Assembly: GCA_026705445.1 (NCBI GenBank)
Contig: JAPPAR010000011.1
Span: 10,525-74,524 of the forward strand
Length of the DNA stretch: 64,000 bases
Source of the DNA: Candidatus Dadabacteria bacterium
GTDB taxonomy: Bacteria; Desulfobacterota_D; UBA1144; Nemesobacterales; Nemesobacteraceae
Reading direction: 5' to 3'
Position 1 is the stretch's first letter. Each line of letters starts with the position of its first letter. Under the pieces are notes generated by a model. The model saw only the letters and a list, made by a program, of their open reading frames with translations, did no database searches and was not told the origin of the DNA. Below, in pieces: positions 24,270-39,062 of this stretch. The position numbers and the translations under genes are program-made.

Positions 24270-25105
24270 TTATGGTCTTTTGCATGTTCTTGTTTTTAAA
24301 AAATCCGAAATTTCGTTTTCCGTTTCGTAGAACGTTTGTCTTTCTTCCGTCCACTCGGAACAATCAAGGAGAATAAAGTCTCGAGAATTTCCATTACTGA
24401 ACTTTGAAGCATACTGGCTGATTCCAATCACGGTATTTAGATTCGCAAACCTGTTCCTGATAACCCCGCATGCGACTTCGAGCATTTTTTGGCGAGCTGG
24501 ACGATAACGGTTCTCGAAATCTCCGGTTTGCGGACATTTTAGCTGTAAAAATACGTACCCCTTATCTTTTTGAAGCGAGGACATGAATTTAACTTTGGGA
24601 AGCACAGAATGATCGGTTTCGGGGAAGTTGCGTACCTCTTTCCGTATTTCCTCGGATAGCAATCGACGCGTAAAGCGTGGTTCTTTTGCCATTTCGCATA
24701 TAAGATGCTGTCCTCTTTCTAAATCAATATCGTTGAGTAAAGCTCCATCAAGCATATCTTGGCATACTTGCTGTATAAATTTGTCCCAAAAATAGGAAAT
24801 CTCATTCGCTTCTTTTCTCCTTTTATAAGGTTCTGATTTGGAAAAATATTCCCAAAGTCCATCTGCCGCTATGATAGAAGAGTTCGGGTTTCCGGGATTG
24901 GTACGATATCTATTCCGACTTTCGTCATAGCTGAGAAAGTAGTGTGCGAGAAGTTCATGTTCTCCGAAATACAGAAGAGACTCGCATGTGCCGATTGTTT
25001 TTTCCTTATCGTTTATGAACTCGGCAAAATCGGAAATAGTGTCAAGTTCACGAAGAACAGTTTCAACATTAGAACTGTCTAGGATATGGACGGGATCCTC
25101 TTTTT
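24270..25105 (-). CDS. 3' exon (277 codons) of an AT-rich hypothetical gene interrupted by a group II intron
   Basis: Reading frame is open from 25103 down to the stop at 24270, with no ATG/GTG/TTG upstream of 24755 in frame. Low GC (~38%). Joins in frame to the ORF at 27101..27329 if the intron 25106..27100 is removed. The product is not confidently assignable to a family. Confidence 0.5.
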
Positions 25106-27100
25106 ATCGAGTAGGGAGGGGCGTTGCCGCGCCCTTCCCCTCGCAGACCCGAGCGTACGCGTCTAACGCACTCGGTTCCTCGCGTGCTAGTTTCACTCAT
25201 ATAGTATTTACCGGTCGCACTACCTTGACCCTTGGCAGTGGATTCTTCCTGAGTATCTCTTTCATCTTCTCCCAGTTCACTCGCCCCTTGCGGCTGCGTC
25301 GTGACAACCACTTCCGCCATACCTCTATGACCTAGTTTCGAAACTGGGCTAGCCTCTTCCTGTTCCCCGTCACCCCATAGTAGTTGCAGTGCCCGCGAAT
25401 TACCCGCCCAAGGTGCGCGGCCTGCGCGTCTATCCGCATATGGCGGTTTCCCCTGCACCACTCATTGACCGCACTTACCGCCCTTGCATACCGTCCCTTG
25501 GCCGTTACTTTTCGCAGCACTCTGTTGCCCTTCCTCGACCGCCCCCACACATGCGTGAACCCCAGGAAGTCAAACCTGTGATCTTCTCCCTTTCTGCCTG
25601 CCCGCATGTCCACATACCGTGTCTTGGCCTCATGGAGCGCTAATCCATACTTCTCCAGTCGCTTGCCAAGCACCTTGTTCACCCTCTCCCCGTCCCTTCT
25701 TTCCTCATAGAGCATTACGAAATCATCCGCAAACCTTACCAACTGGCACCGTCCCTTCATCCGCGGCTTCACCGTCTCCTCAAACCACTTGTCTATGACA
25801 TGGTGAAGTAGAGATTTGAGATCATCGGACTTATCACCCCACCCTGCGGGGTGCCTTCCGTTGACCGCCTCAACTGCCCCTCCTCTAATACTCCTGCCTT
25901 AAGCCATTTATCTATCATGCGCCTTATTACACCATCTTTGATCCGCAGATCAAGAAACTCCCGCAGCTTACCGTGGTCGATACTGTCAAAATACTTCCTT
26001 ATGTCCGCGTCTATTACCCATCTCTGCCCTTCCTTCATTACTCCCGCCCATATGGCGTCGAGCGCCCCGTGCGCCCCTCTCCCCGGCCTGAAGCCATATG
26101 AGCACTCAAGGAAGTCTCCCTCGTATATAGACTCAAGCATCATCAGTACCGCCCTCTGCGCCACCTTGTCCTCAAATGTCGGTATCCCCAGCGGCCGTTG
26201 CGTACCATCCGCCTTCGGTATGTAGTGGCGACGTACCGGCGGAGCCTTGTACTGCCCCGACTTCATGCGGCTGAGCAAATCCTCGAGATTGCTCTCAAGA
26301 TTCTCCTCATATTCCGCCGCCCCAACTCCGTCCTTCCTCGTCTGCTGATACGCTACGATCATCCATTCAAGGTCTATAAGATGATTCAGTGATGTGAACA
26401 CCCGCTCCGGGTGTTCCCTTGCCTGCTCGGCTATCCATTCCCGTTTCGTTAACGTACTCATTGCACTCTGTGTTGCCCCCTTACATTCCCCGTTAATGGC
26501 TCTACTCACGCGGTGCCCCGCTTCCCTCCACCGGGTCCCGCCGGACACGGTTCCCCGCCTTCATCAGTACTATCAGAGCACTATGACTCCCCGCATTGCT
26601 TCCCTTCGGCTTATTTGTTCGTTTTCCGGTACCACGCCGTAACCGCTTGTTAGTGTTATCGCTTCCGCGCTCCCTGTGTGCACCGGCTACCCCGCACGCA
26701 GGGCCAAGGGACATTGTTCCCCCGGATCCCCTCTGCTTCCGGGATTCGCTACGTGGACAATGCAGGGTCTCCCAGGTTCCCTGGTGAGCCTTCCCGTGGC
26801 TATGCCTCCGTTCTTTGACCCCGGACGACCCTCGGCGTCTCGTCTCTTGCGACGCTCCGGTACTGCCCCCAGTAATTGAAAAGTGAAGGCGTCATCATTG
26901 CGTTTATCGAGACTCAATAGCGGCGCTTTACCACCCGCTGTTTACGCTTCACGACACACGTTACCGTGCGCCATGCAAAACTCGCTTCCGGCTGGCTGAC
27001 TGTACCCTTTGCCGGATGGGAGTCGAACCCACTGGCTCACTATGAATGATTTCCAGCTATGCCATAGCTTTCCCTCCTTCCAGAGCTTTCCCTAGCGCAC
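25106..27100 (-). mobile_element. group II intron (~1995 nt) with an internal maturase/RT ORF. 5' GTGCG at 27100-27096 and 3' ...CGAT ending at 25106 (inferred)
   Basis: RT domains 0-7 and the X domain are clear in ORFs 25793..26548 and 25332..25772. ORF start is ~552 nt from the proposed 5' end and ORF stop ~226 nt from the 3' end, matching DI-III / DIV-ORF / DV-VI proportions. The intron begins GTGCG and ends AT. GC-rich intron sequence contrasts with the AT-rich exons. Boundaries not confirmed by a structure model. Confidence 0.6.
25332..26548 (-). pseudogene. group II intron-encoded reverse transcriptase/maturase, lacking an En domain and interrupted by a 1-nt frameshift near 25794-25800
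   Basis: RRHYIPKADGTQRPLGIPTFEDKVAQRAV, QGGVISPMISNLY | (frame shift) | LHHVIDKWFEE ... VRFADDFVML ... X-domain RGHCNYYGVTGNRKRL. The two halves are in different frames and the join falls inside the conserved NLY-LHH motif. Confidence 0.75.
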
Positions 27101-27329
27101 TCAACTTCACGCAGGAAGGTCTCTCCGCGGAGGGTTTAGCGTGCTCTCCATAAGAAATGGCAAGGCTTCCGGAATAATCCTTGCCGGAAAACTTTTTCAG
27201 GGTTTCTTCCACTCCATGGGCGACGACGAACTTATGAATTCTCGCGTTTTCCGGAACTCTGTCGTCTTTACACGGGTTCGGATAGCTCCAGAATTTCAAG
27301 AACGTGTTCTCGCAAAGCTGAGAAAGCAA
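27101..27329 (-). CDS. 5' exon (76 codons) of the intron-interrupted AT-rich gene. TTG start at 27329 is uncertain; an AGGAGG lies ~55 nt upstream
   Basis: ORF 27057..27329 reads through the proposed 5' splice site at 27100. The last 13 aa of that ORF (ALGKALEGGKAMA) would be intron-encoded read-through. Confidence 0.4.
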
Positions 27330-37517: not shown

Positions 37518-37895
37518 CACATAGGGATTAAAAATTGATATTCTTTTCGCTCCCCGCCATGGAAGAGAGAGCGAAAGAGCGCCGAGGTCTTGGCTAAATA
37601 TCTTAAACCCAAAATTGTGGTTGTCGGAGAAGGACCATCCGAGCATTTGGATTATTACAGTTACCGCTTCCCTCAAAGCGAATCCGTGTGACCCAAGTCC
37701 ATGCCGGGACACACGGTGTCGCGCACCGCGCGCTTTAGCTCCTTTATCTCTACCAGTACCATTTCTGCCTTTACCCCCTCGCCCGAGGCGCCCACGCAAA
37801 GCCGCCTCCACAGTTGATTATAAAGGGACTGAAATTATATACAATTCTAGACGTGAACAGGTGCAATCGCAGACAAACCGGGTATATATAGAGCA

Positions 37896-39062
37896 ATGAT
37901 AAAGACCTACAAATGTCGCGCCAAGCTGTCTGTCGCAGGACACCAGAGGCTTGGGGAGATATTCAGATTATCCGCGGAACTCTATAACGCGGGTCTGGAA
38001 TCCCGTATTGACTGCTACAGAAAAACTGGCAAAAACCGCAGTTTCTTTGACCAGTGCAAGGAACTCACGGAGGTAAGGGCAAGTATTGCGGAGTTCAATG
38101 AAGTTTCCGCTATTTTGTTCCGCGGCGTTCTCTCAAGACTTGACAAAGCGTACAAACAGTTTTTCAGGCATGGAGGTTTCCCTCGTTTCAAGAGTTCCAA
38201 GCGTTGGCGGACAATAGAGAAAAACGACCGGTGCTGTAAGATGCTCAAGCGCGAGGGGCGGAATCTGGTTCTCAAGGTAAAGGGGCTTCCCCGCATTGAA
38301 GTGAAGACGGAGCGGGAGCTGCCGCCGAACGCATTGCTGAAAGCGATAAGGATTACAAGAAAGCCTTTGCGCACGGAAGTTGGTTTATCGTATGAAATGC
38401 CGACCCTGGAGGCGAAACCAGTGGTGAACAATCCCGCCGGGATAGACACGGAAATATCAAAGCGCCTCACTCTGAGCAACGGGGAGACTGTAGAGAAGCG
38501 GAAAGTGGACAGGCGCAGGTTAATACTGCTACAGCGTTCTGCATCCCGCAAGAAAAAGGGAAGCAACAACAGAAGGAAGGCGGTTTCGTTGTTGGCAAAA
38601 GAGTGGCAGAGAGTGACAGACAAAGAGAGGAACTACCTGCACAGGCTGACTTCGGAGATAGTGAGGACATACGATTTTATAGCGGCAAAGAGACTTGAAA
38701 CGAAAAAAATGCTCGGCAACAGGCAGTTGGCAAGGAGCATACAGGAGCAGACTTGGGGAAAGTTTGCCGTGCTGCTTAACGAGAAGGCTGAAAGTGCCGA
38801 CGTTAAGATGGTGGCAGTGAATCCCGAGGGAACTTCGCAGGAATGCTCAAGTTGCGGAGCGGAAGTTAAAAAAGAGTTGTCTGCAAGAGTTCACAAGTGT
38901 AATTGTGGGCTTGTATTGGACAGGGACACAAATGCGGCAATTAATATCCTTCATCGAGGTATCTCGATTGCGGGTGGGAAACTCAAGCAGTCCCGCATGG
39001 CCGGAAGGATGAAAGAGAAGCTGGAGATTGCTCCGGTTCGGCCAAGAACAGTATATGTCTAG
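37896..39062 (+). CDS. tnpB: IS200/IS605-family TnpB (OrfB, IS1341-like RNA-guided RuvC nuclease); no tnpA present
   Basis: N-terminal KTYKCRAKL, RuvC-I GIDTEI, RuvC-II region, zinc finger CSSCG...CNCG, RuvC-III DRDTNAAINIL. 388 aa. Confidence 0.9.
   Translation: MIKTYKCRAKLSVAGHQRLGEIFRLSAELYNAGLESRIDCYRKTGKNRSFFDQCKELTEVRASIAEFNEVSAILFRGVLSRLDKAYKQFFRHGGFPRFKSSKRWRTIEKNDRCCKMLKREGRNLVLKVKGLPRIEVKTERELPPNALLKAIRITRKPLRTEVGLSYEMPTLEAKPVVNNPAGIDTEISKRLTLSNGETVEKRKVDRRRLILLQRSASRKKKGSNNRRKAVSLLAKEWQRVTDKERNYLHRLTSEIVRTYDFIAAKRLETKKMLGNRQLARSIQEQTWGKFAVLLNEKAESADVKMVAVNPEGTSQECSSCGAEVKKELSARVHKCNCGLVLDRDTNAAINILHRGISIAGGKLKQSRMAGRMKEKLEIAPVRPRTVYV

Follow-up and report, generated by a model that had tools for sequence, protein, structure and literature searches.

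Introduction

The TPR-GreA/B-C-PIN (TGP) proteins were predicted by Kaur, Iyer, Burroughs and Aravind (eLife 2021, PMC8195603) to act as a conflict system, encoded mostly by stand-alone genes and carrying one of a list of heads in which HNH is explicitly included. In their proposal, docking on phage-hijacked RNA polymerase falls to the Gre-like domain, the PIN domains cut transcripts, and the effector is released as a last resort. One member, Agp, guards E. coli against T5 by abortive infection in concert with Bab: it is Agp that detects the T5 infection and sets off its partner, and a mutation in the Gre-like domain abolishes the response (bioRxiv 10.1101/2024.11.07.622273). On a double-PIN variant with a permuted Gre-like domain, a search of the literature turned up nothing beyond these two sources. 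A probable variant of this kind is the subject here: a giant protein of 2008 amino acids (aa), encoded within a 64,000-nucleotide stretch of a Candidatus Dadabacteria genome (contig JAPPAR010000011.1), henceforth called the window.

The gene lies in a span (24270-39062) between leuA and a gene for cytochrome c. I propose that repeated insertion, at a hotspot formed by cytochrome c, Rdx and leuA, has made this span a mosaic accessory island, and that a 9.1-kb mobile cassette within it, containing the gene for the TGP-type giant, is its functional, anti-phage core. The proposal as a whole seems to me probable, if short of assured, and the defence function in particular is something I infer.

An insertion hotspot beside leuA

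The nature of the site is best seen by comparison with relatives (loci compared with the window are labelled L, followed by a number). The window's LeuA is 97% identical to one that bears the NCBI name Candidatus Dadabacteria; the relative L178, with LeuA at that identity, served as the reference for junctions, compared by blastn. In L178 and L179 (LeuA 97%) the site is empty: the cytochrome c gene, a gene for an 88-aa Rdx and leuA are grouped within some 500 bp. The flanks on either side, in L178, are collinear with those of the window. The site is likewise empty in L181 and L182 (LeuA 89%), where the same three genes are adjacent. In L183 (LeuA 82%) it is filled, by about 6.5 kb of other genes: HTH, DruA-like, two kinds of transposase, Peptidase_M78 and SocA_Panacea. 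Since the site is empty in the two closest relatives found and differently filled in a third, it is a hotspot, and what the window holds there is accessory, as an earlier note on this DNA had claimed. The exact locus is present in several metagenome assemblies and in two NCBI metagenome-assembled genomes (MAGs). Among contigs with identical LeuA no island-free variant of the window's own population was found, the island being present in nine places out of nine.

That note had also taken the island to be one unit of about 15 kb, and this part of the claim does not stand. Homology with L178 ends at 24030, just upstream of leuA, and restarts at 37671. Between these points lies Insert A (24031-37670, no strand), 13.64 kb in length, in place of some 35 bp of the spacer between Rdx and leuA. 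Homology breaks once more at 37828-39079, beyond a remnant of Rdx. It follows from these breaks that the span comprises at least two independent insertions plus a remnant of a core gene, rather than one block. Insert A is itself composed of three sequence-distinct parts: an intron-split gene of a SEC-C family, the 9.1-kb cassette, and a small HicA module. The order of genes had been given correctly, with coordinates right to within about 250 bp. The right border is marked by the cytochrome c gene (39164-39544, plus strand; PF13442, PF00034), a core gene collinear with those of L178, L182 and L183.

Neither an integrase nor a tRNA gene was found bordering the island, nor flanking direct or terminal repeats around Insert A. 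Insert A was considered as a prophage or integrative element, and the idea was rejected for want of an integrase, a tRNA border, structural or conjugation genes, and terminal repeats. The locus resembles described defence islands and hotspots in being empty in close relatives and occupied by other defence and mobile genes in another, in its atypical base composition, and in its mixture of defence genes, toxin-antitoxin genes and mobile elements. It differs from them in the lack of an integrase, tRNA target or flanking direct repeats found at Insert A, and in its host, an uncultured member of the Dadabacteria with a small genome (~2 Mb).

A sharp fall in GC content had been reported between leuA and cytochrome c. 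The deficit is genuine: the GC of the span is 0.492, against 0.556 +/- 0.024 in the core baseline, taken as 1-kb windows of sequence common to the empty-site relative. It is patchy, however, rather than sharp or uniform. Low values are found in exon 2 of the split gene (0.41), in the hicA-like gene hicA84 (0.40), in hicB (0.46), in the HEPN gene (0.45) and in the second toxin-antitoxin module (0.42), all described below. The group II intron (0.562) and the 6-kb open reading frame (ORF) of the giant (0.516) are near-native, and the TnpB element (0.493) is grouped with them. GC at third codon positions discriminates better, at 0.72-0.79 for leuA, cytochrome c and nitroreductase versus 0.38-0.59 for the genes of the island.

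A giant protein with two PIN domains

The giant (27577-33603, plus strand) can be divided into an HNH head (residues ~1-115), a putative helical region (~120-760), an HTH domain (765-834), a first PIN domain (~843-1000), a second (1029-1142), a putative permuted GreA/B-C-like domain (1415-1463) and a conserved C-terminal region (~1470-2008). It had been thought to have no confident family, a view that two Pfam models overturn: HTH_upst_double_PIN (PF24407, 78.6 bits) and the family-specific PIN model PIN-TPR-GreABC (PF20698, 48.4 bits), both above their cut-offs. A third, Permuted_GreAB-C (PF24388), is borderline above its cut-off at 29.2 bits, and the Gre-like domain that it marks is a putative one. 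No Pfam TPR model matched residues 120-760; one homologue has a precomputed match to TPR_19. The HNH head finds, in PADLOC, CBASS-type HNH effectors, PDC-M68A and the N-terminus of SduA (1e-37 to 1e-20).

There are at least 577 homologues, spread over many bacterial phyla and one MAG labelled Thorarchaeota. At 42-68% identity to the giant, their heads may be HNH, TIR (PF13676, PF01582), SIR2 (PF13289), metallophosphoesterase (PF00149) or AlbA_2 (PF04326). Swapping of N-terminal heads is typical of immune effectors. One class of homologues, 1365 aa long, corresponds to residues 1-1361 of the giant. Two sets of acidic residues are conserved, each just past a first beta-strand (D848/E886/D973 and D1031/E1082/D1134/D1135), from which it would appear that both PIN domains may be active.

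From these matches I infer that the giant is an HNH-headed, double-PIN variant of the TGP conflict proteins. It has in common with them the family-specific PIN, a putative Gre-like domain, what may be a long helical region, a variable N-terminal effector position and defence-island contexts. It departs from them in its size, about 2000 aa with an extra conserved C-terminal region of some 540 aa, and in its company: the giants of its subclade always have hicA-hicB downstream, in contrast to the mostly stand-alone genes of the published family. Its effector is fused to it, unlike that of Agp, a separate one recruited by means of an amyloid motif.

Two further observations concern the giant and its relatives. 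The HNH head (27577-27906, residues 2-110) is 59% identical to an 'ABC-three component system protein' on a Blastomonas plasmid, which points to an HNH effector module common to different conflict systems. Downstream of distant giants, by 0.2-3 kb and on the same strand, there is a gene for a protein of ~1060-1120 aa (at L013, L020, L046, L047, L075 and L083, also at L027, L031 and L056), mostly in MAGs of Latescibacterota. Perhaps its product is a conserved partner within that subclade.

A cassette found in unrelated surroundings

The giant does not travel alone. The mobile cassette (27411-36519, plus strand) consists of a promoter-like site, the gene for the giant, a hicA-like gene, hicB and a gene for a 547-aa HEPN protein. 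By blastn, positions 27498-36518 are 90% identical in nucleotide sequence to L008/L009, 27702-36519 are 88% identical to L007/L042, and 27411-34923 are 87.5% identical to L010, which is without the 547-aa gene. The flanks are wholly different in each context. L007/L042 places the cassette beside conjugation genes and an insertion sequence on a 2.1-Mb MAG chromosome labelled Thermodesulfobacteriota, in L008/L009 it adjoins a SIR2-DUF4020 gene, and in L010 the block lies between ffh-rpsP-trmD and polA. Its neighbours in other genomes include genes of the SIR2, Panacea, Fic, PIN and AAA_14/DUF4143 types. The common block has its right end no more than 7 nt from the stop codon of the 547-aa gene and its left end 80-170 nt 5' of the giant. 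Recurrence in three other contexts at 87-90% identity bears out, from a second side, the view that the island is accessory.

All four genes of the cassette are under purifying selection, with dN/dS between contexts of 0.10-0.32. Within each pair of contexts dS is broadly similar (0.27, 0.18, 0.28 and 0.26 versus L008, for example). Both figures are consistent with co-divergence of the genes as a unit.

Upstream of the giant is a promoter-like site (27525-27553, plus strand), TTGACA-17-AATAAT, which agrees with 11 of 12 consensus positions and is the best in the region. Just before it lies a conserved AT-rich block (27497-27518). Consensus promoter sites in the region are not above chance in number (18 found versus 14 +/- 4.5 expected); the sequence of this one is kept in five contexts, down to 68% protein identity. 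A 10-mer, TATRYGRTAY, occurs at 27508-27517, before the giant's -35 box, and at 33684-33693, upstream of hicA84, and nowhere else in the 64 kb. A shared operator of the two promoters was entertained and set aside: the apparent palindrome upstream of the giant is not retained in the other contexts, and the test of the 10-mer is circular because the pattern was derived from the very sites that it matches. Two or more matches turned up in 7 of 100 shuffled sequences. The 10-mer is a lead only.

HicA, HicB and their link to the giant

Following the giant is hicA84 (33731-33985, plus strand), which encodes an 84-aa protein, a putative mRNA-interferase toxin. It has no Pfam match. It does match two PHROG 'toxin' families, 8887 (3.2e-5) and 353 (1e-3), its orthologue in L184 has a weak match to PF07927, and it aligns with HicA77, the HicA of the second small module, the two having G42-x-H44 and P-x-P-HGK in common. 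A HicA profile run against PDB sequences found nothing. On this modest evidence the protein may be called HicA-like.

The case for its partner is firmer. The 274-aa HicB antitoxin (33989-34813, plus strand), whose gene starts 4 nt past hicA84, scores 47 bits with PF05534 (cut-off 21) and 37.5 bits with PF15919 (cut-off 27), and it matches phrog_497 (E = 7e-15). It too had been listed as lacking a confident family, incorrectly. Residues ~120-274 form a poorly conserved tail, and the orthologues, 185-312 aa long, differ in that tail. It can confidently be considered a HicB with a variable tail. The pair resembles type II HicAB systems in its motifs (a HicA-like protein with G-x-H and P-HGK, encoded directly upstream of a HicB that passes Pfam), in the order hicA then hicB, and in the 4-nt gap. 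It differs from them in that HicA84 fails the Pfam HicA model, that about 150 aa of HicB are a poorly conserved tail, and that the two genes have been inherited along with a putative defence gene 6 kb long.

The trio of giant, HicA-like 84-aa gene and HicB recurs in six unrelated contexts: the window, L007, L008, L010, L185 and L184. The giant of L185 is a 72% homologue and that of L184 a 68% homologue with an AlbA_2 head, and both keep the trio. In five of the six contexts 128-149 nt separate the giant from hicA, and hicA is separated from hicB by 4 nt. The link between giant and HicAB is old within one subclade. Most likely, hicA-hicB accompanies the giant as an addiction module or as an additional abortive one.

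An unannotated HEPN family

The last gene of the cassette (34882-36525, plus strand) encodes a protein of 547 aa with an N-terminal HEPN domain (R190-N191-x3-H195-G196) and an alpha/beta C-terminal half. RNGIAHGG, which includes the Rx4H motif, is invariant across its homologues, and the protein is HEPN by fold and motif, as had been claimed from the RNxxxH signature. The accompanying suggestion that it belongs to Abi_2 (AbiD/AbiF, PF07751) must be dropped: there was no Pfam match to that family at E <= 0.01 or at E <= 10. Nor did Pfam as a whole (to E <= 10), NCBIfam, PADLOC or PHROGs yield any match. The C-terminal half (~280 aa) gave no convincing structural match, and a search against plasmids found none.

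Homologues number at least 275. They are uniform in length, none has a Pfam domain, and their named hosts include Desulfonatronum, Trichlorobacter, Martelella, Salipiger and Nitrospira. The gene belongs to the cassette in three contexts only and is missing from L010, L184 and L185. Homologues at 76% identity and below stand alone, with no common neighbour. Clustering of 412 ORFs neighbouring distant HEPN loci revealed no conserved partner, the recurring clusters stemming only from near-duplicate contigs. Most likely, the 547-aa protein acts independently, as a self-contained abortive-infection RNase, and is a recent addition to the cassette.

Compared with known HEPN RNases (HEPN-MNT toxins, Csm6/Csx1, and AbiD/AbiF, that is, Abi_2), the family has the invariant Rx4H in the RN...H form that is common in Abi-type HEPN proteins, and it is stand-alone in variable, defence-rich neighbourhoods. 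What sets it apart is the lack of a match to Abi_2 or any other model searched, the ~280-aa alpha/beta C-terminal half, and the lack of a conserved MNT or other antitoxin partner beside it.

Other parts of the island

At the left of Insert A is a gene on the minus strand, split by an intron. Exon 1 occupies 27101-27329 and exon 2 occupies 24270-25105, its open frame running to 25105. The family to which the gene belongs has 1374 representatives by phmmer (50% clustering), members of 450-500 aa with a C-terminal SEC-C motif (PF02810) and no other Pfam domain. Exon 2 aligns to residues ~170-445 of such homologues (phmmer) and matches phrog_18195 (E = 2.8e-16), and it appears to be from a decayed member that is missing the SEC-C motif. 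Compared with full-length homologues, exon 1 lacks about 95 aa from its interior, as judged by eye against P0366 and P0369: it keeps TEKLLSQLCENTFLKFWSYPNP and IHKFVVAHG...GSLAISYGEH and has lost the intervening ELCDLLAVFG...FIFFD. With some 95 aa of the N-terminal domain and the SEC-C tail gone, this copy looks like a pseudogene.

Between the exons lies a group II intron (25106-27100, minus strand, 1995 nt). Domains I-IV are matched by Rfam RF02005 at 115 bits (gathering score 49) over 26809-27025, and domains V/VI by RF00029 at 33.5 bits over 25106-25180, under the gathering score of 40. The 5' end at 27100 reads GTGCG (GUGYG expected) and the 3' end at 25106 reads ...CGAT. When 27100..25106 is removed in silico, codon phase 1 meets phase 2 and the two exons read through precisely in frame. 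Read from the letters of the DNA, the ribozyme domains, the 5' end, the reverse-transcriptase/maturase ORF and the restored exon frame are together those of a group II intron, and the intron-split gene of the earlier note is upheld. The intron's ORF is frameshifted, with RVT_1 and GIIM split over two frames (fragments 25793-26548 and 25332-25772), and independent assemblies give identical gene calls. No further copies of the intron or of exon 2 were found in the 64-kb window or in any fetched locus. The intron is host-like in GC (0.562) and the gene that it interrupts is AT-rich (0.41), a contrast that fits invasion of the intron from the host genome after arrival of the island.

To the right of the cassette is a second small module (36631-37517, plus strand), made up of a 90-aa ORF (36631-36903), a 124-aa ORF (36904-37278) and the 77-aa HicA (37284-37517). 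HicA77, a putative HicA, falls just under the cut-off of PF07927 (26.0 bits, cut-off 27) and matches phrog_353 (6.4e-9). The hicB-like call for the 124-aa ORF is weak: it has some similarity to the N-terminal motif of HicB (BLASTP E = 0.036 over 24 aa) and weak PHROG matches, with no match to a family model and nothing among PDB sequences. The 90-aa ORF had been noted as without family and remains so after searches of Pfam, PADLOC, NCBIfam and PHROG. The module is found only in contigs of the same population and may be regarded as a putative three-gene HicA module. It differs from type II HicAB systems in its reversed order, its extra ORF and an antitoxin candidate that lacks a family match.

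The Rdx (SelW-like) remnant (37671-37827, minus strand) consists of the two ends of the gene, with about 184 bp deleted internally: 37671-37750 matches L178 at 9906-9827 (92.5%) and 37758-37827 matches it at 9642-9573 (88.7%), Rdx of L178 lying at 9638-9904. It is followed by a solo IS200/IS605-type TnpB element (37828-39079, plus strand), an insert of 1252 bp in the spacer between Rdx and cytochrome c. Its tnpB (37896-39062) is matched by NF040570 (200 bits, cut-off 100), PF07282 (72.8 bits) and PF01385 (46 bits), and zinc-finger cysteines and RuvC-like motifs can be seen by eye. The element is flanked by the 10-mer ATTATAAAGG at 37818-37827 and 39080-39089, present in single copy in L178. 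No other transposase-like ORF of at least 60 aa occurs in the insert, which agrees with the earlier description of a tnpB without tnpA and makes the element non-autonomous. Neither the window nor the fetched loci contain other copies of this element or of the second toxin-antitoxin module.

Further insertions nearby

The neighbourhood of the island has been invaded more than once. Three more segments are absent from L178: 39972-44347 and 46139-49035 on the right, past cytochrome c, and 15731-16974 on the left. The first lies within an insertion at 39618-44733 that separates the genes for cytochrome c and nitroreductase, neighbours in L178. The insertion carries two minus-strand genes, one (40042-42828) encoding a 928-aa ATPase with AAA_16 and TPR, the other (42789-44000) a 403-aa ATPase_2-like protein with a weak PADLOC match to mad8. 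Its boundaries are formed by a duplication, 384 bp long and 95% identical, of the 3'-end of the nitroreductase gene (39643-40023 and 44350-44733), and the 124-aa ORF at 39618-39992 is a duplicated fragment of that gene. The second, 2.9 kb and AT-rich (GC 0.454), contains a ShosTA pair, ShosA at 46411-47319 (PADLOC 2.8e-94) and ShosT at 47309-47941 (3.5e-47); an NTase_sub_bind (HEPN-type) protein is encoded at 48230-48652. The third, 1.2 kb between mutS and groES, contains a MazE/PemK (MazEF-type) pair.

Beside leuA there is also a gene with RTX (HemolysinCabind) repeats (20599-22038), whose product varies from 470 to 506 aa across assemblies of the same population (L169-L175). This suggests expansion and contraction of the repeats.

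Discussion

How might such a locus have arisen, and what might it do? Repeated insertion into one intergenic hotspot of a Dadabacteria genome would have built the island. Within it, a decaying gene of the SEC-C family was invaded by a group II intron with a frameshifted reverse transcriptase, and a TnpB element inserted separately beside Insert A, the intervening Rdx being partly deleted. The 9.1-kb cassette would be the functional core, acting against phages. Following Kaur et al. (2021), and with partial support from Bab/Agp, the giant's Gre-like domain would dock on RNA polymerase taken over by a phage, and the PIN domains would cut the transcript. If that failed, the variable N-terminal effector, in this case a predicted HNH DNase, would be released and would kill the cell. 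The earlier note's characterization of the content as defence-type is borne out in spirit by the conflict family of the giant, by the defence genes that PADLOC finds among neighbours of the cassette in its other contexts and of the HEPN family (bSEFIR, Hma, DISARM, BREX helicase, Dpd, mad and AriA for the latter, as strong matches), and by ShosTA and MazEF nearby.

Several observations tell against this proposal. The order of domains in the giant (HTH, PIN, PIN, permuted Gre-like) is different from that of the archetype (TPR, GreA/B-C, PIN); the Pfam models that match the variant architecture are themselves named after the TPR-GreAB-C-PIN system. PADLOC detects no complete known system in the span, where only the HNH head and a TnpB/Cas12f similarity were matched. 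The split gene, the intron ORF, Rdx and the tnpB without tnpA are all decaying, and a junkyard of selfish DNA would look alike. The PADLOC matches in neighbourhoods of the HEPN family constitute a raw list with no background rate. Finally, the genes of the cassette keep no company outside their lineage. Near distant giants (no more than 51% identical), 75 loci yielded no hicA, hicB or HEPN partner; tblastn and phmmer over 78 genome loci likewise found none, apart from four weak HicB matches (L035, L043, L072, L082) whose position is unchecked. In the same way, 80 metagenome loci of distant HEPN homologues contained neither a giant nor HicAB. With partners missing around distant homologues, the linkage of giant and HicAB is specific to one lineage rather than a property of the family.

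An alternative view is that the giant, HicA, HicB and the HEPN protein are one integrated multi-gene system, in which, for example, HicB controls the giant's promoter, or HicA and HEPN are RNase effectors released when infection is sensed. The idea has its attractions. The four genes travel together in the window, L007/L042 and L008/L009, in a block that ends within 7 nt of the HEPN stop codon; the trio is kept to 68% identity with conserved spacing; dS is broadly similar across the cassette; and TATRYGRTAY stands upstream of both the giant and hicA, twice only in 64 kb. Against it, the 10-mer carries little weight for the reasons already given, the HEPN gene is dispensed with in L010, L184 and L185 and its 76% homologue is alone, no common neighbour emerges from the 80 distant HEPN loci nor any HicAB or HEPN partner from the 75 distant giant loci, and the published description of TGP genes is of mostly stand-alone ones (PMC8195603). 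I consider integration unlikely. A bolder form of it is equally doubtful: that the cassette is a single layered RNA-targeting immune module, an RNA-polymerase-docking double-PIN/HNH sensor-effector wired to HicA/HicB (by HicB control of the giant's promoter or by release of HicA), with some lineages recruiting a new stand-alone HEPN RNase family that is itself a new single-gene abortive-infection system.

Still less likely is that the island is a graveyard of selfish elements at a recombination-prone site, with no role in phage defence: the pseudogene-like traits (the deletion and missing SEC-C of the split gene, the frameshifted intron ORF, the deleted Rdx, tnpB without tnpA), the lack of a complete PADLOC system and the absence of integrase or tRNA gene at the borders would suit it, but no decay is seen in the giant's ORF, hicAB or the HEPN gene, all of them intact and subject to purifying selection, the giant's family swaps effector heads and has a validated anti-phage relative, the cassette elsewhere adjoins SIR2, Panacea, Fic, PIN and AAA_14/DUF4143 genes, and a further small insertion, at a distance of 7 kb, carries ShosTA.

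The mosaic island with an anti-phage cassette at its core is thus the view I prefer. It does not overturn current understanding, and the locus is a good specimen rather than a surprise. The family of the giant was known; new are the double-PIN HNH variant in Dadabacteria, the lineage-specific co-inheritance with HicAB, and the unannotated HEPN family. The locus documents, with exact junctions, a hotspot for defence genes and mobile DNA in Candidatus Dadabacteria, an uncultured lineage of small genomes to which little study has been devoted. Agp is the sole TGP member to have been tested, and the sensing of RNA polymerase is a proposal; to this the giant adds an HNH-headed double-PIN variant. 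Are the toxin-antitoxin pairs of defence islands passengers, or are they partners? The co-divergence of giant and HicAB is relevant to that question. And the family of ~540-aa HEPN proteins, absent from Pfam, NCBIfam, PADLOC and PHROGs, is a candidate for a new single-gene defence system.

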